A DNA stretch of 47,999 bases from an uncultured Thermotogae bacterium (GCA_964355545.1 CAYHEK010000002.1:1-47999); one strand, 5' to 3'. Positions 33,071 through 47,999 are shown, counted from the stretch's first letter. Translations and numbers: made by a program. Notes: generated by a model from the sequence alone, not told the origin.

Positions 33071-33141
33071 TCTCGGGGTAGGCGCGTATCGAGAAGGGGA
33101 TCACACCCTGTTCTATAAAGAGCTGTTGCTGAATTCGGTGC

Positions 33142-33171
33142 TTGGCGATGAGCTCAGTTAAGTTGTATATT
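33142..33171 (+). promoter_or_regulatory. Probable promoter of the gabT-amidase-liv-racemase operon
   Basis: TTGGCG-18 nt-TATATT in an AT-richer intergenic region. Confidence 0.45.
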
Positions 33172-33248
33172 GATTTATCCGGCTACGGAGTGGGCACGAG
33201 ACCAGAGGGGTGCGCGCCCGAGGCCCAACACGAGTCAGGAGGTACAGC

Positions 33249-34565
33249 ATGAGCGGTCGATCCATCTTGATCAAGACGGAGATCCCCGGCCCGAAATCGC
33301 GGGAGATCGCGAGTCGCAAGGAACGCTACGTCCCGAAGGCGTTCGACACGCTAGCACCGTTCTACATCGCAGAGGGAAAGGGCGCGCTGGTGAAGGACGT
33401 CGATGGAAACCAGTTCATCGACTTCACGGGCGGTTGGGGATGCCTGATCGTCGGCCACACGCAGGATCGCGTGGTCCGTGCGATCTGCGACCAAGCGGCG
33501 AAGTTCACCCACACGGACTTCACGGCGATCCCCTACGACCCCTTTGTGACACTCGCCGAGCGGCTCGCCAAGCGGGCCCCTGGCCCTTCCCCCAAGCAAG
33601 TCGCGTTCTTCAACTCCGGGGCCGAGGCGATCGAGAACGCGGTCAAGGTCTCTCGGAAGTACACCAAGCGTCGCGCGGTCATCGTCTTTGAGGGCGCGTT
33701 CCACGGCCGGACCCTCCTCACGATGACGATGACCCACAAGGCGACCCCGTACAAGGCGGGGTTTGGCCCGTTCGCGCCCGACGTCTACCGGCTCCCGTTC
33801 CCAAACCCGTACCGGAACAACCTCCGATTCGAGGACTGGGAGCGGCTCTTTTTCTCCCTTCTCGATCCCGAGGAGGCGGCGTGCGTCGTCGTCGAGCCTC
33901 TTCAAGGGGAGGGCGGGTTCATCGTCCCTGCGGATGGGTTCCTCGAGTACCTTCGGGAGTTCACGGCCAAGCATGGGATCCTGTTCGTCGTCGACGAGAT
34001 TCAGTGCGGGTACGGGCGGACGGGGAAGTTCTTTGCCATCGAGCACTACGGGGTGGAGCCGGACTTGATCGCGGTTGCGAAGTCGATCGCGATAGGCCTC
34101 CCGCTGTCGGCGGTGATCGGGAAGAAGACGATCTACGATGCGATCCCAGACAGCGCGATCGGAGGGACGTACGTCGGGAACCCCGTGGCCTGCCGTGCCG
34201 CAATCGAGGTCCTGAATGTCATCGACGAGGAGAAGCTCCTCGATCGCGCCGTCGCGATCGGGAAGATCACCCGCAGGCGCTTCGAAGAGATGAAGAAGAA
34301 GTACTCCCTGATCGGGGACATCCGCGGCCTGGGGGCGATGCTCGGGATCGAGCTCGTGGCGGATCCGGTCACGAAGACTCCGGCCAAGCACGAGTGCCAC
34401 GAGGTGGTGGTGGAGTGCCTGAAGAATGGCCTCGTCATGCCGAGCGCGGGACTGTACGGGAATGTCCTGCGGATGCTTGTCGCCCTCGCGATCACCGACG
34501 ATCAACTGAACGAGGGGCTGGACGTGCTGGACCGGGCGATCGGGAAGGTCGCCAAGAAGGGGTAG
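33249..34565 (+). CDS. gabT: Class III PLP aminotransferase, 4-aminobutyrate/5-aminovalerate type
   Basis: AGGAGGT SD and ATG 33249; NSGAEAIENAVK, FHGRT, EPLQGEGG, DEIQCGYGRTG, AKS, GGTYVGNP. Confidence 0.8.
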   Translation: MSGRSILIKTEIPGPKSREIASRKERYVPKAFDTLAPFYIAEGKGALVKDVDGNQFIDFTGGWGCLIVGHTQDRVVRAICDQAAKFTHTDFTAIPYDPFVTLAERLAKRAPGPSPKQVAFFNSGAEAIENAVKVSRKYTKRRAVIVFEGAFHGRTLLTMTMTHKATPYKAGFGPFAPDVYRLPFPNPYRNNLRFEDWERLFFSLLDPEEAACVVVEPLQGEGGFIVPADGFLEYLREFTAKHGILFVVDEIQCGYGRTGKFFAIEHYGVEPDLIAVAKSIAIGLPLSAVIGKKTIYDAIPDSAIGGTYVGNPVACRAAIEVLNVIDEEKLLDRAVAIGKITRRRFEEMKKKYSLIGDIRGLGAMLGIELVADPVTKTPAKHECHEVVVECLKNGLVMPSAGLYGNVLRMLVALAITDDQLNEGLDVLDRAIGKVAKKG

Positions 34566-34596
34566 GACGATCGACACGCGAAGAGGGAGACACGCG

Positions 34597-35499
34597 ATGC
34601 TACGGATCAAGAAAGAGAGGCGGACCTACTTCTACGACCCGCGCAACGAGCCGGCCGCATTCGCCTCCGTGGGGGACGTCGTCACCTTCGAGACGGTCGA
34701 CTGCTTCGACGACCAACTGAAGACGCCGCAGGACCTCGCGCACGCGCTCGACATGTCGCACACGAACCCCAACACCGGCCCGCTCTTCGTGAACGAGGCC
34801 GTGCCGGGGGACATCCTCTCGGTGAGGATCCTCGACATCGAACCGGAGGACCATGCCGTGGCGACCCTGATCCCCCGCGAGGGGGTCCTGCAGGACCGGG
34901 CCCCCGGCCCGGTGACGCGGATCTTTCGCATTAAGGATCGCATGACGATCTTCAACGACGACATCGTGATTCGGCCGCGGCTCATGGTCGGCACGATCGG
35001 GACGACCCCCCTCGCGCGATCTCCCACCGGCCTTCCCGGCGACCACGGGGGGAATATCGACGTCCCCACCGTGGGGATCGGGGCCTCCCTCTATCTTCCC
35101 GTGTTCGTCCCCGGAGCGCTTTTGCAGATGGGCGACGTGCACTCCGCGATGGGGGACGGCGAGATCTGCATCGGCATGGAGTGCGGGGCCGAGGTGACGG
35201 TCGAGATTCAAGGGCTCCTTAAGGACCGGTTCCTCGCGGGTCCGCTCGTGGAGACCGCGGAACGCTGGGGGATTATCGCCGACGCGCGTACCTTCGAGGA
35301 CGCAGTGCGGCTTGCCGTGCGGCGGACCGCCGGCTTCCTCACCCAGAAGCTCTCCCTCACGCTCGAAGACGCCGCGCTCCTGATCAGCACGGCGTGCGAC
35401 GTGAAGCTGGCCGAGTGGGCCGACGCGAACTACAACCTGGTCGTCTACGTCGAGGTCCCCAAGTACCTGGATAAGCGGGGACGACTCGAGTCGTTCTAA
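34597..35499 (+). CDS. Acetamidase/formamidase family amidase
   Basis: NPNTGP, HGGNID, GDVHSAMGDGE. Confidence 0.88.
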   Translation: MLRIKKERRTYFYDPRNEPAAFASVGDVVTFETVDCFDDQLKTPQDLAHALDMSHTNPNTGPLFVNEAVPGDILSVRILDIEPEDHAVATLIPREGVLQDRAPGPVTRIFRIKDRMTIFNDDIVIRPRLMVGTIGTTPLARSPTGLPGDHGGNIDVPTVGIGASLYLPVFVPGALLQMGDVHSAMGDGEICIGMECGAEVTVEIQGLLKDRFLAGPLVETAERWGIIADARTFEDAVRLAVRRTAGFLTQKLSLTLEDAALLISTACDVKLAEWADANYNLVVYVEVPKYLDKRGRLESF

Positions 35500-35604
35500 A
35501 GAGAAAGGAGGTGAGGGAAGGCATACAAGAGGAGGGCACGGGCCTTAGGTCACTTGTGCGGTCTGGCTTCTTCACGAGCGTTTCATCGAAGGAGGGTGAC
35601 GGTT

Positions 35605-36813
35605 GTGAACAGGTGGATGGTTGCGTTCTTGTGCGGGATTGCCCTTTTGGGAACCCTTGTGTTCCCCGCGATCGCTCAGGAGAAGACCCCGATCAAGCTT
35701 GGGGTCATCTTGGAGCTGACCGGATTCGGGGCGGAGATGGGGATCGAAGGCAAGCAGTGCGCGGAGGTCGCCGCGGCACTCAAGAACGATAGCGGCGGGG
35801 TTGCGGGGCACCCGATCGAACTCCGGATCATCGATGGTCAGAGCGACACGGTCGCGTTTCAGAGCGCGGCGGTGAGGCTCTCCGGAGAGGAGATCCTCGC
35901 TGCCCTCGGCGCGAACGATATCTCCTTCTCCCAGGCGGCCGGAGCGGAGTTCCAGAAGGCGGGGATCGTCTGGATCGACTGCGGCGGGACGACGCCGACC
36001 ATCCCCGAGATCGGCGACTACAATTTCATGATCCCCGTGCCGGATAACGATCAGGGGAGGGGCGTCGCGGCGTTTGTCTTCAAGAAGCTCGGCTACAACA
36101 CGGTCGCTATCTTCAAGGACATCGGAAGCGCCTACGGGACGGAGCTCACGAACTACTTCATCCAGTACTTCAAGGAGTTCACCGGGAAGGAGAACCCTGT
36201 CCCGCTTGTCCTGACCTACCAGGCGGGCGACGTCGACTACACGTCTCAGCTCACGAAACTCAGGGCCGATGCAGGGAAACTCGGGATCCAGGCGGTCATC
36301 CTTCCGACCTGGCCGCGCGACGCGCCGACGATCGCCCTCCAGGCGCGGGCGATGGGGATCAACCTTCCTCTGATCGGGACAGACGGGGTGGACACCACGG
36401 CCCTCACCGAGGTCGGGGGCACAGCGGTGGAGGGGATGGTCTACTCCACGCACTTCCACTATGAGAACGTCGCTACGGCTCAGGTGACCGAGTTCGTGGA
36501 CCGCTTCTTCCGCGTCTACGGCTTCCCGCCGGGCGCGTTCGGGACGATGGCGTTCGACGCGCTCTCGGTCATCATGGAGGCCCTGGAGAAGAACATCACG
36601 GAGATGGGAGACGCCGCGTGGAGCGCCCTCTCGCTCGCAGAGAAGCGGACCCTCCTCCGCGACACGCTTGCGACCGGGACCTTCACCTCTGCCACCCAGA
36701 CGATCCAGTTCAACTCGCTGCGTCAGCCGCAGCGCGGCTTGACGTGGGTGATCGTTCGGGACGGGGAGCGGCACTTCTACTACTTCCAGCCCTACGCGGA
36801 GTACGCAAAGTAG
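35605..36813 (+). CDS. ABC transporter substrate-binding protein, LivJ/LivK (HAAT) family
   Basis: AAGGAGG SD and GTG 35605; signal peptide (AIA-Q); IKLGVI..LTG, GGV.GHPIEL, DYTSQLTKL, GTDG. Confidence 0.88.
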   Translation: MNRWMVAFLCGIALLGTLVFPAIAQEKTPIKLGVILELTGFGAEMGIEGKQCAEVAAALKNDSGGVAGHPIELRIIDGQSDTVAFQSAAVRLSGEEILAALGANDISFSQAAGAEFQKAGIVWIDCGGTTPTIPEIGDYNFMIPVPDNDQGRGVAAFVFKKLGYNTVAIFKDIGSAYGTELTNYFIQYFKEFTGKENPVPLVLTYQAGDVDYTSQLTKLRADAGKLGIQAVILPTWPRDAPTIALQARAMGINLPLIGTDGVDTTALTEVGGTAVEGMVYSTHFHYENVATAQVTEFVDRFFRVYGFPPGAFGTMAFDALSVIMEALEKNITEMGDAAWSALSLAEKRTLLRDTLATGTFTSATQTIQFNSLRQPQRGLTWVIVRDGERHFYYFQPYAEYAK

Positions 36814-36829
36814 GGAGATTCGCTAGCCC

Positions 36830-36861
36830 GGGGAAGCCCCTCACGGGGCTTCCCCTCTTTG
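36830..36861 (+). terminator. Intercistronic hairpin after the binding-protein gene
   Basis: Perfect 11-bp stem GGGGAAGCCCC-TCAC-GGGGCTTCCCC followed by TCTTTG. Confidence 0.7.
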
Positions 36862-36891
36862 TGGTCCTCGTGACGTGAGCAAGGAGAGGCT

Positions 36892-37677
36892 ATGGGCGGA
36901 CCTGACGTGCTCTTGGAGGTCTCTGGCCTGGGAAAGACGTTCGGCGGACTCGTCGCCGTCTCCAACTTCGAGGCCCAGGTCCCGCGGGCCCAGATCATAG
37001 GCCTGATCGGGCCGAACGGCGCCGGCAAAACCACGGTCTTCAACCTGATCAGCGGGGTCCTGAAACCGACCTCCGGGAGGGTCCGATTTGGAGGGCGGGA
37101 CATCACGGGCCATCCGCCGGACCGGATCTGTCGCTGCGGAGTCGCGCGCACGTATCAAAAGATTCGCCTCTTCCACAACCTAAGCGTCCTGGACAACGTC
37201 CGTTATTCGCTCGTCAAGACGGCGCGCTACAACCTCATGGACACGCTGATCGGATCGCCTCGGTATCGAAGGGAGGAGCGGCGGATGGGGGAGCATGCGG
37301 AGCGGATGCTCGACACGCTGGGGATCCTTTCTCTGCGGGACGCGATCGCCTCGGACCTCGCCTACGGCCAGCAGCGCCGGGTGAGCATCGCGCGGGCGCT
37401 CGCCCTAGAGCCGACCCTCCTCCTCCTCGACGAGCCGACCGCCGGCCTGAACACGCAGGAGGCGGGCGAAATCGCCCGTCTCATCTCCCGTCTGCGCGAC
37501 GAACTCCACCTGACGATCATCCTCGTCGAGCACAACATGCGGGTCATCATGGCGATCTGCGAGGACATCATCGTGCTCGATAAGGGTGAGACGATCTGCC
37601 GCGGGACGCCGGAGAAGGTGCAGCAGGATCCGAGGGTGATCGAGGCCTACCTGGGGGTGGCGACCGATGCCAACTGA
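36892..37677 (+). CDS. livG: HAAT ABC transporter ATP-binding protein
   Basis: GPNGAGKTT, LAYGQQR, LLLDEP, VEH, DPRVIEAYLG. Confidence 0.9.
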   Translation: MGGPDVLLEVSGLGKTFGGLVAVSNFEAQVPRAQIIGLIGPNGAGKTTVFNLISGVLKPTSGRVRFGGRDITGHPPDRICRCGVARTYQKIRLFHNLSVLDNVRYSLVKTARYNLMDTLIGSPRYRREERRMGEHAERMLDTLGILSLRDAIASDLAYGQQRRVSIARALALEPTLLLLDEPTAGLNTQEAGEIARLISRLRDELHLTIILVEHNMRVIMAICEDIIVLDKGETICRGTPEKVQQDPRVIEAYLGVATDAN

Positions 37678-38392
37678 CACGATGGCCCTCCGCCTGCAGG
37701 ACGTGCACGCCGGCTACGGGAAGATGGAAGTCCTCCTCGGGATCGATCTTCTCGTTGGTGACGGCGAGATCGTCGCCCTGGTTGGATCGAACGGAGCGGG
37801 GAAGACGACGACTCTCCGCACGATCGTCGGGCAAGTGAAGGCGCGGGCGGGAACGGTCGAGTTCCTGGGCGAGGACATCTCTCGCGAACCGCCGTACGCC
37901 CTGACGCGTAAGGGAATCGCCATGAGCCCGGAAGGCCGTGCAGTTCTAGGAAACCTCTCTGTCTTCGAGAACCTGCGGCTCGGCGCGTACACGGTCAAGG
38001 ACTCGGTGCGGTTCAAGAAGGAGCTTGAGCGCGTGTACGCGCTTTTCCCTCGGCTCAAGGAGCGCGAGCGGCAGAGCGGCGGGTCCTTGAGCGGCGGGGA
38101 GCAGCAGATGCTCGCCGTCGGACGGGCGCTGATGAGCTCGCCCCGGCTTCTTCTCCTGGACGAGCCGTCATTGGGAATCGCGCCGAACTTGGCGCGGACC
38201 ATCTTCGCCACCTTCCAAGAGATCCGCGAGGAGGGGAGTTCGATCTTGATCGTGGAGCAGAATGTCTCCCTCTCCCTGCGGGCCTCGGACCGGGCGTACG
38301 TCATGGAGCGGGGGCAGATCCCCCTCGAGGGGGAGTCCAAGGCGCTGCTTGAGAATCCGCACGTCAAGGCCGCCTACCTGGGGGTCGCCTAA
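37667..38392 (+). CDS. livF: HAAT ABC transporter ATP-binding protein
   Basis: GSNGAGKTT, FPRL.ER, LSGGEQQM, LDEPSLG, VEQN. Confidence 0.9.
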   Translation: MPTDTMALRLQDVHAGYGKMEVLLGIDLLVGDGEIVALVGSNGAGKTTTLRTIVGQVKARAGTVEFLGEDISREPPYALTRKGIAMSPEGRAVLGNLSVFENLRLGAYTVKDSVRFKKELERVYALFPRLKERERQSGGSLSGGEQQMLAVGRALMSSPRLLLLDEPSLGIAPNLARTIFATFQEIREEGSSILIVEQNVSLSLRASDRAYVMERGQIPLEGESKALLENPHVKAAYLGVA

Positions 38393-38403
38393 GGGGAGAT
38401 CGC

Positions 38404-39297
38404 ATGTCCTTTCAATACGTTGTGCAGCAGATCCTGAACGCGCTTGCCTGGGGAAGCATGCTCGGCCTCATGGCCGTCGGATACACCCTCCTCTACGGCG
38501 TACTCGGGCTCGTGAACTTCGCTCAGGGCGAGATCTTCATGGTGGGAGCCTTCTCGGCGTATCTCGCGATGGCCTTGGGGAACGCCCCGTTCTGGGTCGG
38601 TCTCCTCGCGGCCGTGGGGGGGGCCGTGATCGCGGGCGTCATCCTCGAGCGGGTGGCGTTCCGCCCCGTACGCAAGGCGGGAGGGATTACGCTGTTCATC
38701 ACGTCCCTCGCCGTCTCGATCGCCATCAAGAACCTCTACATCATGGGTCTCACGAACAAGATTCGCCCGTTCAAGACGCCGGCCTTCCTCCGCACCGTGC
38801 ACGACTGGCACGGGCTCCTGATCTACAACAACACGATGGCGATCGTGGCAGTGACCTTAGTCATCACGGTCGCTCTTCTTCTCTTCATCAAGCGAACGAA
38901 GACCGGAATCGCCATGCGTGCCGTTGCCTACGACCGCGAGACCGCGGAGCTGATGGGGGTGAACACGAACCGGGTCATCGTCATCGCGTTCATCATCGCC
39001 TCGGCCCTGGCCGCGATCGCCGGGGTGTTCTGGGGGGTGAAGTTCGGTTCCGTCCAGCCTACGATGGGCTACATCCCGGTGATTAGCGCGTTCATCGCCG
39101 CGGTCCTCGGCGGGGTGGGGAACATCGCCGGCGCCATGGTCGGCGGGTTCATCATCGGGATTGGAGAGATCCTGTTTGTTGGGTTCCTGCCTTCGGAGCT
39201 GATCGGACTGCGGCCGGTCTTTGTCTGGGCGGTGCTGTTCGTTCTTCTCCTGTTCAAGCCGTCGGGTCTCTTTCCGGCGAACATCAAGCCCTCGTAG
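38404..39297 (+). CDS. livH: HAAT ABC transporter permease
   Basis: A.GYTL.YG...VNFAQGE, G.AMRAVA.D, AAVLGG.G. Confidence 0.9.
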   Translation: MSFQYVVQQILNALAWGSMLGLMAVGYTLLYGVLGLVNFAQGEIFMVGAFSAYLAMALGNAPFWVGLLAAVGGAVIAGVILERVAFRPVRKAGGITLFITSLAVSIAIKNLYIMGLTNKIRPFKTPAFLRTVHDWHGLLIYNNTMAIVAVTLVITVALLLFIKRTKTGIAMRAVAYDRETAELMGVNTNRVIVIAFIIASALAAIAGVFWGVKFGSVQPTMGYIPVISAFIAAVLGGVGNIAGAMVGGFIIGIGEILFVGFLPSELIGLRPVFVWAVLFVLLLFKPSGLFPANIKPS

Positions 39298-39311
39298 AGG
39301 AGGAAGAGAAC

Positions 39312-40367
39312 GTGAAAACGCTGCGTCGGATCCTCAGTCCCATCGCCGGACTCGGGCTTCTCGTCCTCCTCCTCTTCGGCGTGGATCGCCTCTTTCCGCC
39401 CTACTACCACCACCTCTTCGTCCTGTTCGGGATCAACATCATCCTCACTGTGTCCCTCAACATCACGAACGGCTTCACCGGGCTCTTCTCCCTTGGGCAC
39501 GGGGGGCTGATGCTCGCTGCGGGGTACGCCTCTGCCTACCTCACCATGCCGGTCTGGTGGAAGGCGGCGCACCTCTCCCTTCCAAGCTGGCTCACCAACG
39601 CCCACTGGCCGTTCTTCCTGGCCCTGATCGTGGGGGGGCTCGTCGCGACCCTCTTTGGCTTCGTCCTCACGGCGCCGTCCTTCCGCCTGAAGGGCCACTA
39701 CTTCATGCTGATGACGCTGGGATTTAACATCATCATGGTCTCCGTCGGCGAGAACCTGATCGCGTTCACAAACGGCGCAAAGGGGATGTGCCCGATCCCG
39801 ACGTATACGAACCTGTGGTGGGTGTTCGGGATCGTCGCGTTTCTCGTGTACTTTGTGCTGCGTCTCAAGCGTTCGAAGCTCGGCCGGGCGATGATCGCGG
39901 TGGGAAAGGACCAGACCCTCGCCGAGACGATGGGAATCAGCGCCTCGCGGGCGAAGATGGCGGCGTTCGCCATCTCAAGCTTCTTCACGGGCGTCGGCGG
40001 GGTGCTCCTCGTGCACGTCATCGGGAACCTCTTCCCGACCCACTTCGGCCTAGACATCGTTTTTGACGTGGTCATGATGTTGATCATCGGCGGGATGGGG
40101 AGCGTTACCGGATCGATCCTCGGCGCGGCGATCGTGACGGGATTCGTCGAGCTCCTCTCCCCGATTCAGGAGGGGTTCACTCTCTTCGGGTTTGCGTTCC
40201 CGCGCATGTTCGGCCTCGTCCAGCTTCTGTTCGCGGTCGCCCTCATCCTGATCCTCGTCTTCCGGCCCTACGGGATCATGGGCGAGCGAGAGCTCTCCCT
40301 CCGGTCACTGGGGAACGCGGCTCGGTTCGTCGGCCGGCTGATCCGGCCTCGCCGTTCTGCCGCGTAG
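39312..40367 (+). CDS. livM: HAAT ABC transporter permease
   Basis: GFTGLFSLGH, RLKGHYF..TLGF, IIGGMGS..G, FRPYGIMG. Confidence 0.9.
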   Translation: MKTLRRILSPIAGLGLLVLLLFGVDRLFPPYYHHLFVLFGINIILTVSLNITNGFTGLFSLGHGGLMLAAGYASAYLTMPVWWKAAHLSLPSWLTNAHWPFFLALIVGGLVATLFGFVLTAPSFRLKGHYFMLMTLGFNIIMVSVGENLIAFTNGAKGMCPIPTYTNLWWVFGIVAFLVYFVLRLKRSKLGRAMIAVGKDQTLAETMGISASRAKMAAFAISSFFTGVGGVLLVHVIGNLFPTHFGLDIVFDVVMMLIIGGMGSVTGSILGAAIVTGFVELLSPIQEGFTLFGFAFPRMFGLVQLLFAVALILILVFRPYGIMGERELSLRSLGNAARFVGRLIRPRRSAA

Positions 40368-40385
40368 GGGCCGGAGGGGGACTTC

Positions 40386-41711
40386 GTGTTGAACTCTGCG
40401 GAGAAGGGCTACCTCGAGCGGGATCGCTCCCTCCTCGCCGAGGCGATGAAGATCCGGTTCTTCCCGATCGTGCTCGAGTCGAGCCGAGGCTCGCGCATCC
40501 GCGACATCGAGGGCCGGGAGTACCTCGACTTCAGCGGGAGCTGGGCCGTCGCCGGCACCGGGTACGGCCACCCGCGGGTGGTGGAGGCGGTGACGAACCA
40601 GGTTCGAAAGGCCTCGACCAACTCCCCGATCTCCATCCCCTGCCCGCAGACGATCGACCTTGCCGAGCGCCTCGTCGCTCTTTTCCCAGGACACTTTGCG
40701 AAGAAGGTCTGGTTCGGACACTCGGGCTCCGAGGCCGCAGACCTCATCGCGAAGTTCCTTCCCATTGCGAAGAAAAGGCCGAGGATCCTCACCTTCGCCG
40801 GGAGCTACCACGGACAGACCCTGGGAGCGGCGTCCCTCTCAGGCCACACTGCCTCCGCGGCCTTCTCCGGAAGCGCGTCGGTGACCAAGGTTCCCTACCC
40901 ACACCCCTATCGGTTCGCGGGGGACGCACAGGCCTGCTGCGAGGAGCACCTGGGCACGATCCGGCGGCTCCTCGAGCGATCGGCCGCGGAGTACGCCGGG
41001 CTGCTTGTCGAGCCGGTGATGAGCGACGGCGGGGTGATCGTCCCTCCCGAGGGGTTCCTCGCCGGCCTCGCGGTCCTGTGCCGCGAGTACGACCTCTACT
41101 TCGTCGTCGACGAGGTAAAGACGGGGTTCGGCCGGACGGGAAGGATGTTCGCCTTCGAGCACGAGGGGGTCGTCCCCGACGCCGTGATGCTCGGGAAGCC
41201 AATCGCGTCTGGGATCCCGCTGAGCGCCGTCGTGGGGAGGGCGGAGATCCTGGACGCGGTCCCAAGCGGCCACATGATGACGACGGCGGGGAACCCGATC
41301 GCCTGCGCGGCGGGCCTGGCGACCCTGGACGTGATTCTGGAAGAACGCCTTCCCGAGAGGGCGGCGAGGTTGGGGGAGACCTTGCTTGAGGCGCTGCGGG
41401 ACCTCGCGGCGGAGCATCCGGCTATCGGGGACGTGCGCGGGAAGGGGCTCATGATCGGAGTCGAGCTCGTCCGACCCGAGTCAAGGGAGCCGGACCCCGA
41501 GCTTACGCGCAGGCTCTGCTACCGCGCCAAGGAGCTTGGGCTCATCGTCTTCTACGTGGGGACGCACTCGAACGTCATCGAGCTCACCCCTCCGCTCGTC
41601 CTCACGGAAGCAGAGCTTCGCGAGGGGGTCGCCCTCTTCTCCCAGGCCCTCGCGGACGCCGTCGCGGGCAAGGTCTCCGCGGACGACCTCGTCGGCTACG
41701 CCGGTTGGTAG
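40386..41711 (+). CDS. Fold-type I PLP racemase, alpha-amino-epsilon-caprolactam (amino acid amide) racemase-like; class III aminotransferase family
   Basis: K.RFFP N-terminus, SGSW, WFGHSGS, EP..SDGG (Asp), DEVK (Lys instead of Gln), NVIELTPP (Glu instead of Arg), C-terminal YAGW. Confidence 0.8.
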   Translation: MLNSAEKGYLERDRSLLAEAMKIRFFPIVLESSRGSRIRDIEGREYLDFSGSWAVAGTGYGHPRVVEAVTNQVRKASTNSPISIPCPQTIDLAERLVALFPGHFAKKVWFGHSGSEAADLIAKFLPIAKKRPRILTFAGSYHGQTLGAASLSGHTASAAFSGSASVTKVPYPHPYRFAGDAQACCEEHLGTIRRLLERSAAEYAGLLVEPVMSDGGVIVPPEGFLAGLAVLCREYDLYFVVDEVKTGFGRTGRMFAFEHEGVVPDAVMLGKPIASGIPLSAVVGRAEILDAVPSGHMMTTAGNPIACAAGLATLDVILEERLPERAARLGETLLEALRDLAAEHPAIGDVRGKGLMIGVELVRPESREPDPELTRRLCYRAKELGLIVFYVGTHSNVIELTPPLVLTEAELREGVALFSQALADAVAGKVSADDLVGYAGW

Positions 41712-41722
41712 GTCCCGGGTCC

Positions 41723-42505
41723 CTACCCCGCGAGCCCACCTCCATCCACCACGAGGGCTGTGCCTGTGATGAAGGAGGAGGAATCACTTGCGAGGAAGAG
41801 GACCGCCTGGGCGACCTCTTCGGGGGTTCCCATTCTCCCCAGGGGGCGATCGGCCGACTCGGCGAGGAACTCCTCGATCGGGATCCCCAGCTCGGAGGCC
41901 TCGTGGCGGAGCATGGCCGTGTCCGTGTCTCCGGGGCAGACGCAGTTCACGCGGATCCCTTGCCGGCCGTGGTCGATTGCCATCGCCTTCGTGAGGAGGA
42001 CGACCGCGCCCTTCGAGGCGCAGTAGACGGCCGCGTCGCGTCCGCCCGCGATTCCCCAGCCGGAGGCCGTGTTGACGATCGCGCCCCCGCCGGCCTTGGC
42101 CATGATCGGGATGACGAGCCGCGAGAGGAGGAAGATCGATTTCAGGTTCGTCGCCATGACCCGGTCCCACTCCTCTTCGCTCGTCCCGAGCACCGAGGCA
42201 CGACGGATGATCCCGGCGTTATTGAACAGGATGTTGAGTCCTCCCCACGCGGCGACCGTCGCCGCGACCGCGCTCTCGCAGTCGCGCGCAGAGGTGACAT
42301 CTGCGGCGAGGAAGAGGGCGCGGCCGCCTGCCTCTTCGATCTCCTCGACCACCGCGCGGCCTTCAGCCTCGTTTCGGTCCATCACCGCTACCCGCGCCCC
42401 CTCCTCGGCGAAGAGGAGGGCCGTCGCCCGTCCGATCCCCGCCGCTGCGCCCGTGATCAGGGCGACCTTCCCCTCGAGCGCCCTGCACTTCGCTCGTTCC
42501 TTCAC
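41723..42505 (-). CDS. Short-chain dehydrogenase/reductase (classical SDR, probably NAD-preferring)
   Basis: TGAAAGIG, acidic residue in VMDR, NNAG, YCASK, CPGDTDT. Confidence 0.92.
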   Translation of the reverse strand: MKERAKCRALEGKVALITGAAAGIGRATALLFAEEGARVAVMDRNEAEGRAVVEEIEEAGGRALFLAADVTSARDCESAVAATVAAWGGLNILFNNAGIIRRASVLGTSEEEWDRVMATNLKSIFLLSRLVIPIMAKAGGGAIVNTASGWGIAGGRDAAVYCASKGAVVLLTKAMAIDHGRQGIRVNCVCPGDTDTAMLRHEASELGIPIEEFLAESADRPLGRMGTPEEVAQAVLFLASDSSSFITGTALVVDGGGLAG

Positions 42506-42539
42506 ACGCCACCTCCTTGATCGACCTTGACGAATCCGC

Positions 42540-43694
42540 CTACTCGCCCTCGCTCGAGACCCGGTAGATGACCCCTTCCCTGTACCCGGTCACGACCGGG
42601 ACGTAGCCCGAGAGCTCCCGGTCAAGGTCTGGATCCCCGGTGTCGACGAGGAAGGGACGCCCTCGCAGCGCCGCGATCTTCGTCGGGGTTGCGACGACGA
42701 CGAGGTTCTCCTTGCCCACCCTGCGGATCACCTCCGGGCTGAGCGGCTGGTTCCCCCGGCCGAAGAGGTATCCTTGCCCACCGATCGGGGTGACGAGGAT
42801 CTTCGCCGGAAGCCCTCCTTGGAGGAAATTGAGGAGCCGCGCTTCGCTCGCGTCGGCCGCGACGAGGCGCCCCCCGCGCACGGCGTCGACGCCGAGGAGC
42901 GTCTTCTCAAGACCCATACGCTCCAGGATCGCGCGCGTCGTCGTCCCGGGCCCGACGAGGTAGAGGGTCCCCTCCTCCGTTCGGGCGAGGACCTCACCCG
43001 CGATCGCCTCCATGGACGCAGCTTCGCCGACGGCGCTCGGCATTTTCGCAGTCTGCAAAAGGCGCGGCTCCGCCGGGACGCGGAGGTAACCGTAGAGCCG
43101 CGTCGAGACGACTCCGCGACGGAGCTTCTCCTCGTCGACGTCCATCACCTCGGCCTCGCGCAAGCGAGGGACGCGACCGCGGAGGTAGGACAGGGCGAGG
43201 TCTCCCGCGCAGCGCGGGCTCACGGCGAAGACGGCGGAGTGCATCTTGACCCCGGCGGGGATCCCGAGCACAGGAAGTCTCTCTCCGATCGCGTCGAAGA
43301 TGTCGCGCGCCGTGCCGTCCCCACCGGCGAAGAGAAGGAGAGAGACCCTGCGGCGCTCCATCTCCTCTGCCGCCCTTTTTGTGTCCTCGGCGGTCGTCCG
43401 CCCTTCCCGGATCGTACCCACGACCGTCGGGACGAACCCGCTCCGCCTCGCCGCCTCCTCGCCCATCTCGCTTGGGTAGGTCAAAAGCTCCATCTCGCTT
43501 CGGATCGCAAGGAGTGCCTCTAGGGCTTGACGAGCGCGTTCGCCCGCCTGGGGGTCTGCCCCCAACTCGCGAGCCCTCCTCTGGACGAGCGTGCCGTCGC
43601 TCCCTTTGAGGGCGACCCTCCCCCCAAGGCCGGCCACGGGGTTGACGACGAGGCCGAGCCTTCTCTTTTCTGACTGCCTCGCGCGTTCGTCCAT
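42540..43694 (-). CDS. ATP-NAD kinase / AcoX-like family protein
   Basis: VNPVAGLGG...LKGSDG, AGGDGTARD, GIPAGVKMHS, GPGTT, GGQGYLFGRGNQ, VDTGD. Confidence 0.85.
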   Translation of the reverse strand: MDERARQSEKRRLGLVVNPVAGLGGRVALKGSDGTLVQRRARELGADPQAGERARQALEALLAIRSEMELLTYPSEMGEEAARRSGFVPTVVGTIREGRTTAEDTKRAAEEMERRRVSLLLFAGGDGTARDIFDAIGERLPVLGIPAGVKMHSAVFAVSPRCAGDLALSYLRGRVPRLREAEVMDVDEEKLRRGVVSTRLYGYLRVPAEPRLLQTAKMPSAVGEAASMEAIAGEVLARTEEGTLYLVGPGTTTRAILERMGLEKTLLGVDAVRGGRLVAADASEARLLNFLQGGLPAKILVTPIGGQGYLFGRGNQPLSPEVIRRVGKENLVVVATPTKIAALRGRPFLVDTGDPDLDRELSGYVPVVTGYREGVIYRVSSEGE

Positions 43695-43699
43695 CGGCG

Positions 43700-45283
43700 C
43701 TAGCGGATCGGCCGCTCGAACTTCCTCTTGTACGCCCTCCAGGTGATCGCCCAGCGAGAGGGGTCGTCGAACGGAGCCGGATCGATCCTGTGGACCGTGC
43801 TGTGGTGGGGGGCGTTCTTCACGACTTCAGGGTCGGAGCGGGCCTCCTCCGCCACGTGGCGCAGGATCGCCGCGTACTCGTCGAGGTCGCCCTTCGAGAA
43901 CGACTCGGTCGGCTCGAGCGTGCACGGCTCGGGGACGACCCACGGGTGGTGGCTCGTCCAGTAGTGGACCCCGAAGTCGGCGGCGCGCAGCCCCACGTCC
44001 TCGGAGTGGACCCCCGTCTCGTTCGTCAACCCCGAAAGGCTATAGCGGACCTGCTCGAGGCGTCGCGTCCCCGGCGCGTAGGGGGCGCTCCACCCGGGGA
44101 TCGAGAGGACCTTCTTCTCGAGGTAGTTGTTGTTGAGGACCGCCGTCTCGGCGACCTTCCTCAGGCCGTCTGCGCCGAGGCCCATCACCCACGCGTAGGC
44201 CTTGACGACCGCGGGGACGACCCCGTAGAAGGATCGCACCTTCCCGATCGAGCGCGGCCGGTCGTAGTCGAAGCGATACCTCGTCCCGTCGAACTCGACG
44301 AGAGGGGCGGGAAGAAAGGGCGCGAGCGCCTCGGTTACACCCACGGCGCCGACCGCCGGCCCGCCGCACCCGTGGGGGGTGGAGAAGGTCTTGTGCAGGT
44401 TGAAGTGGACGAGGTCGAAGCCGGCGTCCCGGGCGCGGGTGATCCCGAGGAGCCCGTTCGCGTTCGCCTGGTCGTAGGACGAGAGGCCGCCCGCGTCGTG
44501 GACGAGCCGCACGAACTCCTCGATCTTGGGGTTAAAGATCCCCGTGTCCTCGGGGTTCGTGATCATGAGCCCCGCCGTCCGCTCGGAGAGGGCCCTCTTC
44601 AGGGCCTCGACCTCGGGGTAACCCCGCGGCCCCGGGTAGAGGGTGATCACCTTGAACCCGGCCGTCTTCGCGCAGGCGGCGTCGGAGGGGTGGGAGAAGA
44701 TCGTCGTGATCATCTCGTCGCGCTGCTCTCCCTGTCCGCGTTCTTCATGGTAGGCGCGGATGAGGGAGGCGTTCGTGTAAATCGCGGCGGAGCCGGCCCC
44801 CGGCTGAAGGGAGAACCGATCCATCCCCGAGATCTCCTTGAGGATCCCCTCAAAGCGGTAGAGGATCTCGAGGATCCCTTGGACTGTCTCCTCGGCCTGG
44901 AGGGGATGGATCTCCGTGACCTGCTCGAGGCGCGCGAGCTCCTCGTTCACCTTGGGGCTGTACTTCATCGTGCAGGTTCCCTGGCCGACGTCGACGTTTA
45001 GATCGAGGCCGAGGGTCTCCTGCGAGAGCCGCATGTAGTGGCGCACGACCTGGGGCTGGGAGATCTCGGGGAGGGCCGGCGGCCTCTCGCGTCGCATCCC
45101 CTGCGGAAGTGTTGCCAGGACGTCTCCGACCTCCATCCGCATCGCTTTCTCGACCGGCGGGACGAGGAGGCCGCGCTCGCCCGGGTGGCCGAGTTCGAAG
45201 ACGATCGGCTCGTCCCACTTCGCCTGGTGAAAGCGGCGCAGCCGCGGCTCCTTCTGCGACCGCTCCGTCTTCTTCGTCTTCAT
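43700..45283 (-). CDS. gcvPB: Glycine-decarboxylase P-protein subunit 2-like (divergent paralog)
   Basis: RHY.RLSQ, CTMKY.P, TNP..GIF, PLP-lysine motif NLHKTFSTPHG.GGP, EPTE; several canonical motifs are altered. Confidence 0.85.
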   Translation of the reverse strand: MKTKKTERSQKEPRLRRFHQAKWDEPIVFELGHPGERGLLVPPVEKAMRMEVGDVLATLPQGMRRERPPALPEISQPQVVRHYMRLSQETLGLDLNVDVGQGTCTMKYSPKVNEELARLEQVTEIHPLQAEETVQGILEILYRFEGILKEISGMDRFSLQPGAGSAAIYTNASLIRAYHEERGQGEQRDEMITTIFSHPSDAACAKTAGFKVITLYPGPRGYPEVEALKRALSERTAGLMITNPEDTGIFNPKIEEFVRLVHDAGGLSSYDQANANGLLGITRARDAGFDLVHFNLHKTFSTPHGCGGPAVGAVGVTEALAPFLPAPLVEFDGTRYRFDYDRPRSIGKVRSFYGVVPAVVKAYAWVMGLGADGLRKVAETAVLNNNYLEKKVLSIPGWSAPYAPGTRRLEQVRYSLSGLTNETGVHSEDVGLRAADFGVHYWTSHHPWVVPEPCTLEPTESFSKGDLDEYAAILRHVAEEARSDPEVVKNAPHHSTVHRIDPAPFDDPSRWAITWRAYKRKFERPIR

Positions 45284-45284
45284 C

Positions 45285-46679
45285 CTACCTCACCACCTCG
45301 TTGAGCGTCTCGGCGAGCCGGTCGATCTCCGCCTTCGTGCGCACCTCGGTTGTGCAGTAGAGGGCGCACGGCCCAAGCTCGGGGAACTCCGTCGTGAGGT
45401 CCTTCCCGCCGAAGATCCCGTGACGTAGGAGGTCCTTGTTGACCTCCTCGACCGTCCGGCCGCCGGGCGGGAAGCGGACGACGAACTCCCGGAAGTGCGC
45501 CGCGTCAAAGAGCGGCGCGGAGACGCCCGGGACCTCGCCGATCTTCTTCATCGCGTAGTGCGAGCGGGCGAGGATCCCCTCCCCGACCTCGCGCATCCCC
45601 TCTGGGCCCATCAGGGCAAGGTAGACCCCGGCCGTGATCCCGCACAGGGCGGCCGCCGTCCCCACGAACTCCTTCCCCTCCTCCCTTCCGGCGAACGAGG
45701 TCCGCTCGTAGGCGACGTCGCCGAACCCGTACTCCCCCTCGACGCACGTGGGGGCGATCCCAAACAGGCGCGAGGGATACTCCATCACGTAGCGCTCCTC
45801 GTCGCGCGTGGCGATGAACCCGCCGTGCCCTCCGCCGAACTGCATGTGCAGGCCGAGGGGCTGGATGTCACCGCAGGCGATGTCCGCGCCGTAGTCGGCC
45901 GGCGGCTTGAGGATGCCAAGGGAGATCGGGTCGACCGAGACGACCACGAGGGCCCCTTGGTCGTGGGCGATCGCCGAGATCTCCTCCCCGTGCGTCTCGA
46001 TCACTCCCAAGTAGGAGGGGTTCTCGAAGTAGACCGCGGCCGTCCGCGAGGAGACTGCATCGCGGAGCCGGTCGAGGTCGAGCCCGCCGGTCGTTGGATC
46101 GAAGTCGAGGAACCGGATCGCGATCTTTGGCTTTGAGTAGTCGCGGATCTTCGAGGCCTTGTCCGGGCCGGTCGCGCGTGAGAGGAGGACCTCGTGCCGG
46201 CCGGTGATCCGAGAGGCCATGCGGATCGCGGTCGCCGTGGCCTGGAAGCCGTCGTAGGTCGGGACGTTGACGACGTCCATATCGAGAAGCTCGGCCATGA
46301 GGCTTGCGTACTCGAAGAGGGCCTGGAACCGACCGTGATCGTCGTAGGGCTCTCCAGCGTAGGCGGTGAGGAACTCGCTTCGTCGATTGACTTCGTCGCA
46401 GACGGCGGGAACGTAATGCTCGTAACACCCGGCGCCGAGGAAGCTCACGTACTCCCGGCAGGTTATGTTTTTCTTGAGGATCCCCTCCACGTGGCGCCGC
46501 AGCTCGCACTCGGCGAGGAAGGGCTCGGGCAGGTTCAGGCGGCCCCTGAACCTCAGCCGCTCCGGGATCCCGTCGAACAACTCCTCCGCGCTCTTCGCGC
46601 CTACCTCCCGCAGCATCTCTTCCCGCACCGCGGGTACGGAGTTGGGGATGTACGGGTAGACGGTCTTTTCTTCGCTCAT
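45285..46679 (-). CDS. gcvPA: Glycine-decarboxylase P-protein subunit 1-like (divergent paralog)
   Basis: YIP, SFLGAG.Y.HYVP, RSEFLTAY, YDG, DP.SLG.L.PP...GADI, QPLG. Confidence 0.85.
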   Translation of the reverse strand: MSEEKTVYPYIPNSVPAVREEMLREVGAKSAEELFDGIPERLRFRGRLNLPEPFLAECELRRHVEGILKKNITCREYVSFLGAGCYEHYVPAVCDEVNRRSEFLTAYAGEPYDDHGRFQALFEYASLMAELLDMDVVNVPTYDGFQATATAIRMASRITGRHEVLLSRATGPDKASKIRDYSKPKIAIRFLDFDPTTGGLDLDRLRDAVSSRTAAVYFENPSYLGVIETHGEEISAIAHDQGALVVVSVDPISLGILKPPADYGADIACGDIQPLGLHMQFGGGHGGFIATRDEERYVMEYPSRLFGIAPTCVEGEYGFGDVAYERTSFAGREEGKEFVGTAAALCGITAGVYLALMGPEGMREVGEGILARSHYAMKKIGEVPGVSAPLFDAAHFREFVVRFPPGGRTVEEVNKDLLRHGIFGGKDLTTEFPELGPCALYCTTEVRTKAEIDRLAETLNEVVR

Positions 46680-46711
46680 CGTGCGTCCCTCCCTCCTTGT
46701 CTTTGGAAACC

Positions 46712-47836
46712 CTACACCTTGCGTCCCTTCGCCGCGGCGAGGGCCTGGGAGACCTTCGCAAGGCCCGTCTTCAAGTCTTCTTGGGATGGCCAGCCGTAGC
46801 CGACGCGGAAGTGGCGGTCGTCCTGCTCGAACCAGTGGCCCGGCCCGACGAAGGTTCGGTAGAGGTCGCGCAGGAGCCGGTAGAAGCGCGGAAGGTCAAG
46901 AGATACCTCCGGTTTGATCCGTGGGAAAGCGACCGCCCCGCCCCGCGGCGCGACGTACTCGAGGTCCTCCTGATGTGCCATCCATTCGGAGACGAGCGCC
47001 GCGCCTTCCTCGACGCTCCTGCGCGCGAGGGCGAGGAGGGCCTCCTTCTTCGCAAGGACGCGTTGGGCGACCGCCTCGTCGAGGATCGAGTTACAAATGT
47101 CGATCTGCTCCTTCGTGGCGAGGAAGGAGTTGAGGAGGGCGCGGTCCTGGCAGGCGATCCAGCCGATGCGGATCCCGGGGAGGCCGTAGGTCTTGGAGAG
47201 CGTGGAGACGCTGATCGCGCGTTTGCTCAGGGAGGCGGCGGTTGGGAGCCTGCCGCCGAAGGAGAGCTCGCGGTAGGTCTCATCGAGGATGAGGATGGAG
47301 CCAGTTGCCTCCACGAGTTTGATCACCGCCTCCAGGGTTTCCGCGGGGATCATCGCACCGGTCGGGTTGTGCGGATAAGTCAGGCTGACGAGCCGCGTCG
47401 TCTTGTTCACCGCTCGCGCGAGGCGATCGAGGTCAAGCTCGTAGCGCTCGGCGAAGGCCAACGGGAGAAGCTCGACCCGCGAGCCCAGGGAGCGCGGGAC
47501 CTCGTAGTTTGAGGGATAGTTGGGGTGGAGGACGACCACCTCATCCCCTGGTTTGAGGAGCGTGGCCGCGGTGACGAAGAGGGCCTGCGCCGCGCCGTTT
47601 GTCACGAGGACCTGATCGGCACTGAGGCCAGGGTAGTCCGCGGCGATCTCCTCGCGCAGGTCGGGCCGGCCGTGGTGGTGCCCGTAGGCGAGGGGGATCC
47701 CCTCGAGGTCAAGGTCGAGGTCGAGTTCGGCCAGGGTGCGGTCGCAGACCGCGCTTTCGCTCAAGTTGTAGGCGATCGCGTCGTAGCCGTACTCCTCGGG
47801 GGACTCCTCTTCGATCGCCATGCGCCGAAACCACAT
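46712..47836 (-). CDS. Class I/II PLP-dependent aminotransferase-family protein
   Basis: NLSES, VTNGA, PNY, PHNPTG, DETY, SKTYGLPGIRIGW, FRVGYG; GGAGGTG SD. Confidence 0.88.
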   Translation of the reverse strand: MWFRRMAIEEESPEEYGYDAIAYNLSESAVCDRTLAELDLDLDLEGIPLAYGHHHGRPDLREEIAADYPGLSADQVLVTNGAAQALFVTAATLLKPGDEVVVLHPNYPSNYEVPRSLGSRVELLPLAFAERYELDLDRLARAVNKTTRLVSLTYPHNPTGAMIPAETLEAVIKLVEATGSILILDETYRELSFGGRLPTAASLSKRAISVSTLSKTYGLPGIRIGWIACQDRALLNSFLATKEQIDICNSILDEAVAQRVLAKKEALLALARRSVEEGAALVSEWMAHQEDLEYVAPRGGAVAFPRIKPEVSLDLPRFYRLLRDLYRTFVGPGHWFEQDDRHFRVGYGWPSQEDLKTGLAKVSQALAAAKGRKV

Positions 47837-47886
47837 GAGTAGCTCACCTCCACGTGTCTGTCGTGCCGTGCGAAGAGCGGCTCCCT

Positions 47887-47915
47887 ATCTTATCGGCGGA
47901 CGGATGGGTGACCAA
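47887..47915 (-). promoter_or_regulatory. Probable promoter of the aminotransferase-gcvPA-gcvPB-kinase-SDR operon
   Basis: TTGGTC-17 nt-TAAGAT on the - strand, about 50 nt upstream of ATG 47836. Confidence 0.55.
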
Positions 47916-47999
47916 GTCGCGGTCGGAATCCCACCTGCGAATCGAGCCGCCTACCACTTCTTGAAGACGAAGAAGACCGCAGCGAGGATCGCAAGTCAC

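Follow-up and report, generated by a model that had tools for sequence, protein, structure and literature searches.

Does a pair of genes that databases name as the two subunits of glycine dehydrogenase, set in an operon without the other components of glycine cleavage, act on glycine at all? This question is raised by the right end of a 47,999-nt stretch of DNA from an uncultured Thermotogae bacterium (the window, by which we mean the whole stretch analysed). The window is contig C2, with about 66% G+C, of a 1.66-Mb assembly of 168 contigs that is about 90% complete. Five minus-strand open reading frames (ORFs) lie at this end (Table 1). They encode a pyridoxal phosphate (PLP) enzyme of class I/II fold (P0001), two proteins related to the GcvPA and GcvPB subunits of the P-protein (PA′ and PB′), a protein of the NAD-kinase/diacylglycerol-kinase superfamily (K) and a short-chain dehydrogenase/reductase (SDR). 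An earlier note, made from the sequence alone, had described a five-gene unit with gaps of 1–34 nt, lacking gcvT and gcvH and possibly directed at an amino acid other than glycine. The gaps computed from the coordinates are 32, 1, 5 and 34 nt, and neither gcvT nor gcvH is present in the unit. What we regard as new is a widespread and probably functionally distinct P-protein paralogue, which is joined in a module, and probably also in a complex, to the kinase-fold protein K.

A canonical glycine-cleavage set is present elsewhere in the same genome. On contig C13 (5073–8207), gcvH (5073–5444, 159 bits) is directly followed by GcvPA and GcvPB, and gcvT is found on a separate contig, C76. The window pair is therefore a paralogue, as had been supposed, and is probably not the glycine decarboxylase of the cell, the label under which databases carry its clade. 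PA′ and PB′ are 35% and 43% identical, respectively, to the canonical pair of the genome. On the NCBIfam GcvPA and GcvPB models listed in Table 1 they score 501 bits (cut-off 364) and 590 bits (cut-off 441), as compared to 552 and 720 bits for the canonical PA and PB. A canonical P-protein co-occurs in all 10 other carrier genomes examined (11/11 counting the source genome), in two-subunit form in eight and as a single chain in two actinomycetes; a partial canonical copy in one genome (G004) shows the DGANLN and SAHG motifs. Several genomes carry more than one paralogue copy: three in a Syntrophomonas metagenome-assembled genome (MAG), two in Clostridium sp. Cult2 and two in a further genome (G009). 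In the Syntrophomonas MAG (G002), the paralogue pairs are located at C1:235943, C19:21562 and C61:14540, and two gcvH-like genes below cut-off (C1:179465 and C1:183844) lie 4 kb apart, about 50 kb from one cassette. In the source genome, the only gcvT match (C76:1444–2523, minus strand) sits in a 1079-aa open frame and may be fused, for example to a dehydrogenase as in sarcosine-/dimethylglycine-type enzymes.

To see which residues distinguish the paralogue, we set the two groups side by side, using 82 paralogue and 10 canonical sequences for PB, and 74 and 9, respectively, for PA. All the motifs quoted in the earlier note are found in the translations (NLHKTFSTPH, TAYAGEPYDDHG, NVPTYDG, FGGGHGG, GQGTCTMKY, FSHPSDAA, DQANAN and YWTSHHPW), and the canonical versions that it gave agree with the alignments to 1wyt_A and 1wyt_B and with the consensus of the 9–10 canonical sequences. 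The two PB clades have the same residue, with at least 90% conservation in each, at 65 positions. Among these are the lysine of NLHKTF, the aspartate of YDxAN (YDQANAN in the paralogue, with the YD retained) and the histidine of (S/A)H (FSHP in the paralogue); for the latter two we assume the roles known from fold-type I enzymes generally. NLHKTF, the motif with the PLP lysine, is matched by an identical string in 1wyt_B and does not vary among 38 paralogues. In PA′ the corresponding region lacks a lysine, so that the motif is present in subunit 2 only.

Another 17 PB positions are at least 90% conserved in each clade with a different residue in the two clades. In PA, the canonical TAYTPYQPExSQG becomes TAYaGEpYeDHG in the paralogue, GEGQ becomes GDiQ, FGGP becomes GGg and REQHIRREKATSNICT becomes eRTSfa.RE.GKEwvGT; the canonical-invariant NASxYDG is likewise replaced by a clade-conserved string. 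In PB, the replacements are YPLGSCTMKYNP by gqGTCTMKYsP, PDSAHGTNPA by TTiFSHPsnAA, TNPNTLG by TNPEDTG, DGANLNA by DQANANG and HpPTxYFPLIV by hYWtSHHPxvVPEP. The replaced motifs are otherwise invariant from the Thermus to the human P-protein. The exchange of canonical-invariant motifs for clade-conserved ones, with the PLP motifs kept, fits a substrate other than glycine, as the earlier note had proposed. Judged from the alignments, the PLP-binding machinery appears to be retained and the pocket of PA′/PB′ rebuilt. Cofactor chemistry would thus be kept and much of the canonical-fixed sequence re-fixed, a pattern suggestive of a changed substrate or co-substrate and not of decay.

The two-gene architecture and the fold family are those of GcvPA/GcvPB from Thermus thermophilus (1wyt, 1wyu and 1wyv), in which the PLP lysine is also in subunit 2 only. 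The matches are clear (PA′ against 1wyt_A, E 4e-69; PB′ against 1wyt_B, E 3.8e-100), and PA′/PB′ remains a member of the P-protein fold family. Unlike the canonical GcvPA/GcvPB, the window pair does not carry the canonical motifs, belongs to a separate long-stem clade and is not adjacent to gcvH or gcvT; PB′ has a conserved C-terminal extension of about 20 residues, and a kinase-fold partner is nearly always adjacent. Because it departs from the canonical enzyme in motifs, orthologous placement and gcvH/gcvT linkage, we do not file the pair as a glycine decarboxylase despite its scores on the hidden Markov models.

The earlier note had suggested a phylogeny as a check for a separate clade. Maximum-likelihood inference (IQ-TREE in its ‘quick’ setting, LG+C20, with SH-like approximate likelihood ratio test (SH-aLRT) support only) was carried out on 68 rows: 48 of the 82 paralogue PB (every second sequence plus named ones), all 10 canonical PB and 10 PA as outgroup, duplicate loci of the same genes having been dropped beforehand. 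All paralogue PB in the tree form one clade (SH-aLRT 100, stem 1.09), and so do all five paralogue PA (SH-aLRT 100, stem 0.78). Both subunits thus fall into a clade of their own, though both clades are nested inside the canonical diversity, beside archaeal canonical sequences. Within the paralogue clade, archaeal and bacterial rows are intermixed, implying horizontal transfer, or binning error in some MAGs. Two such sequences, from a Bathyarchaeota MAG (L015) and a Heimdallarchaeota MAG (L094), are 76% and 62% identical to the window PB′, respectively, and both are placed among bacterial sequences, through either a recent transfer between domains or mis-binned contigs. As far as the tree can tell, the clade is an old, horizontally spread paralogue of the two-subunit P-protein.

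Its distribution is broad. A pattern search in one genome per GTDB species, from which 80 loci were kept for locus analysis, recovered relatives of PA′/PB′ in at least 598 species genomes of bacteria and archaea, from 600 matching stretches. Carriers include Chloroflexota, many Actinomycetota, Bacillota, Acidobacteriota, Pseudomonadota and others, as well as Bathy-, Hadar- and Heimdallarchaeota MAGs; the cassette is frequent in Streptomyces, Kitasatospora, Nonomuraea and Actinomadura, and the module is also found on megaplasmids. Cultured carriers are Rhodococcus qingshengii, Streptomyces, Microbacterium, Gemmobacter and Paracoccus aminophilus. The best 120 database matches to PB′ are 73–84% identical, come mostly from Anaerolineae and are named GcvPB by their sources. 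In the 151 genomes of the window's own class, identity to P0003 is bimodal among the matches listed: 56–100% in 18 genomes, mostly of the window's own family, or 39–45%, which are canonical copies. Since the module is frequent, mobile and sometimes multicopy, it probably serves a common class of nutrient.

To see which genes belong to the module, we used the five window proteins as tblastn queries on the 80 loci, of which 60 have at least 2.5 kb of sequence on both sides. PA′ adjoins PB′ in 78/80 loci, the remaining two being truncated. K is adjacent in 54/60 flanked loci, and 41/60 contain an SDR of at least 48% identity to P0005; both are found in 37/60 and neither in 2/60. The linkage with the kinase-like gene and the SDR, for which the earlier note had asked a survey, is thus conserved across phyla. 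The note had missed that K is the most constant partner of the pair. When the genome's own proteins were used as queries, no gcvH or gcvT was detected in any of the 80 loci within up to 7 kb. The basal branches of the clade, from archaea and Bacillota, carry PA′-PB′-K without a P0005-type SDR, while the derived branch that includes the window adds this SDR, often with one or two more. The gene order is K-PA′-PB′ in Pseudomonadota and on megaplasmids; the order PA′-PB′-K also occurs, as in the window. PA′/PB′ and K therefore constitute a conserved module to which the SDR was added in the window's lineage.

K is recognised by both Pfam domains of NAD kinases (NAD_kinase, E 5.4e-20; NAD_kinase_C, E 7.6e-17), and no NCBIfam family matched it at E ≤ 0.001. 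Its motifs NPxAGxGG, GGDGT, GIPAGVKxHS and GGQGxxxGRGNQ are invariant or nearly so in 56 sequences, GGDGT being strictly invariant. In an AlphaFold2 model with a predicted local distance difference test score (pLDDT) of 92, the N-terminal domain (approximately residues 10–219) superposes on NAD kinases and on DgkB/YegS-type kinases with Z of 8–10.4, the best matches being NADK and DgkB (Z 10.2–10.4 over 126–136 residues, VIA-align). K thus shares with these NAD kinases and lipid kinases the N-terminal fold and the GGDGT motif. It differs from them in other respects: a PDB sequence search with K returned no kinase match and no sequence relative, Foldseek gave weak matches only (template modelling score 0.24–0.32), and the C-terminal half (221–384), with middling matches to eIF2B-like chains (Z 7.3–7.7), is not convincingly matched. 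The ESM Atlas returned only ‘ATP-NAD kinase family’ clusters for K. From its fold and its conserved motifs, K is plausible as an active ATP-dependent phosphotransferase; in particular, the invariant GGDGT and the 90% linkage argue for catalysis by K.

We then modelled K together with PB′, each supplied as an alignment. The complex reached a score of 0.77 in three runs, versus 0.00 for the best of three controls. In calibration, this mark was reached by 58/80 solved complexes and by 2/110 mismatched pairs, counts that apply only approximately here because the model was run on our own alignments. At least 82% of contacts recur between the runs, and the partner pLDDT is at least 79. Since K has no sequence relative in the PDB, the score is unlikely to derive from a remembered structure. 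The predicted interface brings PB′ residues 209–218, 226–231 and the clade-specific 447–451 (the HHPWVVP stretch) together with residues 337–345 and 363–378 of K. Where K is present, conservation at these PB′ positions is slightly above that of the remainder (0.78 versus 0.70); in the 13 loci without K, consensus retention is 0.60 at the interface versus 0.67 elsewhere. P217 of PB′ is retained in 67/67 loci with K and in 7/13 loci without it. The model supports docking of K on PB′, a relation that had escaped the earlier note, in which the kinase-like gene was correctly described as linked.

Proteins of the K type would also appear, from their genes, to pair with other PLP folds. On plasmid EAL2_808p of Peptoclostridium acidaminophilum (L117:9034–11110), the gene for a K homologue (43% identity) runs into the start of one for a 328-aa PLP enzyme of the HisC/CobD family, and no GcvP-like gene is found near it. 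Of 13 long K homologues, six also contain an S-adenosylmethionine (SAM) methyltransferase domain, three a class-III aminotransferase domain and two a PdxB-like 2-hydroxyacid dehydrogenase domain. The characterised HisC/CobD and PdxB members known to us act on phosphate esters. The long proteins include P0126, P0127, P0128, P0129–P0134, P0136 and P0137; DUF3410 and Methyltrans_SAM are among the partner domains, and one entry, from Teredinibacter, is of RefSeq type.

Our preferred reading, to which we give a probability of about 0.38, is that of an ATP-coupled PLP enzyme that needs neither T- nor H-protein, in which K phosphorylates, PA′/PB′ cleaves and the SDR handles the carbonyl compound. K would use ATP to phosphorylate the hydroxyl group beside the amino group of a vicinal amino alcohol, the substrate being an amino alcohol, a hydroxy-amino acid or an amino-polyol or amino-sugar acid. 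PA′/PB′, with K docked on PB′, would then bind the amine as a PLP aldimine and cleave it by eliminating phosphate. Decarboxylation might drive or accompany this step, CO2 being lost if the substrate is an alpha-amino acid. The products would be a carbonyl compound, NH3 and inorganic phosphate (with CO2 in the latter case), without involvement of H- or T-protein. The SDR, replaced elsewhere by Zn-dependent alcohol dehydrogenases or an aldehyde dehydrogenase, would interconvert the carbonyl product or prepare the hydroxyl substrate; the class I/II PLP enzyme of the window would be a local addition. We infer here the kinase activity of K and its substrate, the type of cleavage, the independence from H and the class of substrate. 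This reading accounts for K being the oldest and most constant partner, for its predicted binding to PB′ and for its association with further PLP enzymes; it also explains why carbonyl-handling genes lie nearby and why H and T are absent in cis. The stricter claim, that this is an unrecognised three-protein ATP-coupled PLP enzyme which cleaves O-phosphorylated vicinal amino alcohols or hydroxy-amino acids without any lipoyl carrier, is more tentative and we regard it as doubtful.

Pairs of a kinase and a PLP enzyme are well known: ethanolamine, 1-amino-2-propanol and 5-hydroxylysine kinases act with O-phosphate phospho-lyases, and L-threonine kinase with the CobD decarboxylase. By analogy, the logic proposed here would be the same, with O-phosphorylation beside the amine, PLP-dependent cleavage to a carbonyl compound and a dehydrogenase alongside. 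The protein families are not the same. Folds of the APH, GHMP or other types are found in the known kinases and class-III or class-I folds in the known lyases, whereas the window combines a putative kinase of NADK/DAGK fold with a PLP enzyme of GcvP fold. The likeness would therefore be one of working and not of membership.

Several observations weigh against this reading. We know of no case in which phospho-lyase activity has been shown for the GcvP fold. The predicted interface uses C-terminal strands of K and not its GGDGT domain, and the relaxation of the interface in K-less loci appears modest and is confounded by kinship. The K fusions are single-member assembly clusters and could be read-through artefacts. 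K is missing in 6/60 flanked loci, and a derived subclade has the arrangement SDR-PA′-PB′ without K; in genus g6, K was found in 0/5 genomes (79–92% complete) by a genome-wide search with the window K as query. The existence of this K-less subclade means that phosphorylation cannot be obligatory for the whole clade. gcvH is present in 56/56 carrier genomes tested, several of which have extra gcvH-like copies, so that dependence on H has to be reckoned with. Transporters near the cassettes vary by host (sugar ATP-binding cassette (ABC), Liv-type ABC, PnrA-type ABC, APC, MFS, TTT and CitMHS), from which we conclude that the clade probably spans several related substrates. Finally, both PA′ and PB′ exceed the NCBI equivalog cut-offs for GcvPA and GcvPB.

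A dependence on H, borrowed in trans as the earlier note had suggested for one of its two options, would take the following form. A substituted amino acid would lose CO2 on PA′/PB′ and be passed to the lipoyl arm of GcvH from the same genome; the aminoalkyl-lipoyl adduct would hydrolyse to an aldehyde and NH3, L-protein would re-oxidise H, the SDR or an alcohol dehydrogenase would process the aldehyde and K would be accessory. We consider this unlikely, but a real contender. It agrees with the presence of gcvH in every carrier tested and with the extra copies, it explains both the aldehyde-handling neighbours and the K-less subclade, and the P-protein fold, with the 65 PB positions common to both clades, is made for such chemistry. 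However, gcvH is common anyway, as canonical PB is present in approximately 138/151 genomes of the class, so co-occurrence says little. The absence of gcvH and gcvT from all 80 loci also tells against it, whereas canonical P genes adjoin gcvH, and K is left without a role.

A further argument for a lipoyl-dependent reaction could be drawn from AcoX, with which the earlier note had compared K. AcoX, from the operon of the lipoyl-dependent acetoin dehydrogenase, has the same Pfam pair as K, NAD_kinase plus NAD_kinase_C. The gene acoX is the first of acoXABC acetoin dehydrogenase operons. A 2022 paper calls the function of AcoX unknown (PMC10107126). Like K, it stands directly before the two genes of a heteromeric cleavage enzyme; AcoX precedes a thiamine-dependent E1, whereas K adjoins a PLP enzyme. 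The parallel is a tentative one. Neither 81 Burkholderiales genomes nor 13 plasmid matches yielded a K homologue linked to aco genes, and the K homologues in 2/81 of these genomes are both beside PA′/PB′. Of the label AcoX/NAD-kinase-like, the two NAD-kinase domains hold, and orthology with AcoX is putative.

As an alternative to the kinase-coupled reading that also dispenses with H, PA′/PB′ could be a plain amino-acid decarboxylase making an amine, which would be exchanged by an APC antiporter or oxidised by an amine oxidase, with K in a regulatory or structural role. APC permeases in or beside the operon in Rhodococcus, Gemmobacter and Syntrophomonas, the primary-amine oxidase gene downstream in Gemmobacter and the retained PLP motifs are in line with such an activity. 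Most loci, however, have other types of transporter or none, the conservation of GGDGT and the linkage of K argue for catalysis by K, and the aldehyde- and alcohol-handling neighbours are left unexplained unless an oxidase is present. We regard this alternative as improbable.

A second ordinary glycine decarboxylase isozyme, served by remote GcvH and GcvT, is what the equivalog scores and the database names of the relatives would suggest, and both gcvH and gcvT exist in the genome. This is nevertheless very improbable in view of the canonical copy that coexists in 11/11 genomes, the replacement of motifs invariant from Thermus to human, the occurrence of up to three paralogue copies in one genome and the lack of linkage to H or T at any of the 80 loci. 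Moreover, glycine cleavage offers no reason for linkage to K, SDR, glycosidase and amine or alcohol genes. A biosynthetic role in making a secondary metabolite or a cofactor, particularly in actinomycetes, is hardly credible: the cassette is frequent in the four actinomycete genera named above and P0001 resembles the GntC, VioD and OrfR cyclases of natural-product pathways, but no nonribosomal peptide synthetase, polyketide synthase or similar core genes were found in 12 loci scanned, the neighbours are transporters, glycosidases and catabolic-type regulators (GntR/FCD, LysR and sigma-54), the module is found on catabolic megaplasmids and P0001 is not conserved with it.

The genes flanking the module point to the catabolism of hydroxylated amines or amino acids, with uptake systems, local regulators and enzymes for aldehydes, ketones, alcohols and amines. 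As automatic ORF clustering was polluted by antisense ORFs in high-GC DNA, only Pfam-confirmed clusters were used. In actinomycetes, a GH42 beta-galactosidase gene occurs in 28/80 loci and lies on the same strand directly upstream of PA′ in 14. In Microbacterium sp. PMB16 (L061:3484–6983), the GH42 stop codon overlaps the PA′ start, and a divergent GntR/FCD regulator is present. A GntR/FCD regulator is found in 26/80 loci, a CUT1 sugar ABC transporter in 16/80 and an MGH1/GH63-like glycosidase in 9 loci (this last from the ORF clustering, with one member confirmed by Pfam). Other regulators near the cassettes are of the LysR and sigma-54 kinds, likewise of catabolic type. In the GH42-linked actinomycete hosts, the cassette seems to be fed by glycosides. 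A sugar-acid reading, based on a DgoR-like GntR/FCD regulator and on an enolase-superfamily gene in one locus (L074), was merged into the hydroxylated amine/acid class.

Other hosts have other neighbours. A Burkholderiales locus includes three GFO/IDH/MocA dehydrogenases, two xylose-isomerase-like TIM barrels and a MalK-type sugar ABC ATPase, and a Sphingomonas locus three Zn-dependent alcohol dehydrogenases and an LLM oxidoreductase. The order is LysR, SDR, APC permease, SDR, K, PA′, PB′, AMP-binding protein and M20 deacylase in Rhodococcus, and TetR, K, PA′, PB′, APC permease, SDR, acyl-CoA synthetase and primary-amine oxidase in Gemmobacter. In Roseicitreum, aldehyde dehydrogenase and TctCAB genes precede K, PA′ and PB′, and genes for an FAD oxidoreductase and a DHDPS-family protein lie close by. 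Two amino-acid permeases flank the Syntrophomonas locus, and the K-less type of locus has a PnrA/Bmp-type ABC transporter.

In the window itself, a plus-strand block (30393–41711) converges on the cassette. Besides a five-gene Liv-type ABC transporter and two class-III aminotransferases, the first of them GABA-AT-like, it encodes an AlaDh_PNT_N protein of 450 aa, a saccharopine-dehydrogenase-fold protein of 442 aa and an FmdA/AmdA-family protein. The AlaDh_PNT_N, saccharopine-dehydrogenase-fold and FmdA-like proteins matched no NCBIfam family at E ≤ 1e-20. This block looks like an island for the catabolism of an amine, lysine or a polyamine. In mammals, hydroxylysine is degraded through a kinase and a PLP phospho-lyase. 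By analogy, and purely as speculation, the collagen-derived glycoside glucosyl-galactosyl-5-hydroxylysine could be a candidate substrate in actinomycetes, an idea drawn from the GH42 and MGH1/GH63-like genes and from the saccharopine-dehydrogenase-like genes beside the window cassette.

Of the two outer genes of the unit, only the SDR gene belongs to a recurrent association. P0005 scores 259 bits on NF005559, the ‘glucose 1-dehydrogenase’ subfamily (cut-off 215), matches Pfam adh_short with E 1.3e-61 as well, and carries ITGAAAGIG (TGxxxGxG), NNAG and YCASK (YxxxK), the features of a classical SDR. The first gene is another matter. The earlier note had counted this aminotransferase among the components of the system, but a P0001 homologue was detected by tblastn in 0/80 related loci and in 1/10 loci of the window's own class. 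In that locus (L124), the nearest relative sharing the layout, a 62%-identical copy stands upstream of the cassette and the order is aminotransferase, PA′, PB′, K, SDR, second SDR and a convergent class-III aminotransferase (70%), with another class I/II gene further upstream on the same strand. P0001 is thus a lineage-specific local addition, outside the conserved module. Its best NCBIfam models are all below cut-off (PRK07324, 246 of 476 bits; GntC, 234 of 415; VioD, 214 of 391), and the nearest PDB entries are 3op7, 4m2j and 8fft.

Table 1. Genes and leader of the minus-strand unit at the right end of the window
Feature	Coordinates	Strand	Remarks
Class I/II-fold PLP enzyme P0001, 374 aa	46712..47836	-	Pfam Aminotran_1_2, E 1.2e-40; first gene of the unit
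PA′, paralogous P-protein subunit 1, P0002, 464 aa	45285..46679	-	NF001696
PB′, paralogous P-protein subunit 2, P0003, 527 aa	43700..45283	-	NF003346; PLP lysine motif NLHKTF; clade-specific C-terminal extension
K, NAD-kinase/diacylglycerol-kinase superfamily, P0004, 384 aa	42540..43694	-	Pfam NAD_kinase and NAD_kinase_C
Classical SDR oxidoreductase P0005, 260 aa, GTG start	41723..42505	-	Pfam adh_short_C2, E 5.8e-69
5′ leader of the first gene	47837..47915	-	Ribosome-binding site GGAGGTGA ahead of the ATG at 47836

The ribosome-binding site GGAGGTGA in the leader was judged strong when read by eye. A promoter of its own had been attributed to the unit; a consensus scan found no sigma-70-type promoter in 41400–47999. 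As the contig stops at 47999, 163 nt beyond the start of the first gene, the unit could reach further upstream, and a promoter of its own is not supported. A glycine riboswitch had also been argued against. No Rfam family reached the gathering score anywhere in the window, which agrees with that claim, but the canonical gcv loci of the genome have no Rfam match either, and the argument therefore does not discriminate in this genome.

A full-text search, from which most subscription journals were outside, found no paper on a GcvP paralogue linked to an NAD-kinase-like gene, nor on COG3199. If the substrate of PA′/PB′ is indeed not glycine, the name ‘glycine dehydrogenase subunit’ is wrong for thousands of proteins in the databases, and the capacity for glycine cleavage or the reductive glycine route is inflated in metagenome models of Chloroflexota, actinomycetes, syntrophs and archaea. 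If the ATP-coupled reading is also true, at least about 600 species, all annotated with glycine dehydrogenase, have a route of amino-alcohol or amino-polyol catabolism that is independent of B12 and of transaminases. The module further offers a handle on kinase-fold proteins of the AcoX type, as predicted bound partners of heteromeric cleavage enzymes.

A search for longer proteins revealed no fused form of the paralogue PB and gave only canonical single-chain P-proteins of at most 41% identity. Fusions with T, H and L domains, by contrast, are found among canonical P-proteins. T and P domains are combined in P0141 (1816 aa). In P0146 (1909 aa, on a 7.7-kb JGI contig), the Pfam list contains GCV_T, GDC-P, GCV_H and a pyridine-nucleotide disulfide oxidoreductase in one chain, and all four components of glycine cleavage may be fused in this protein.

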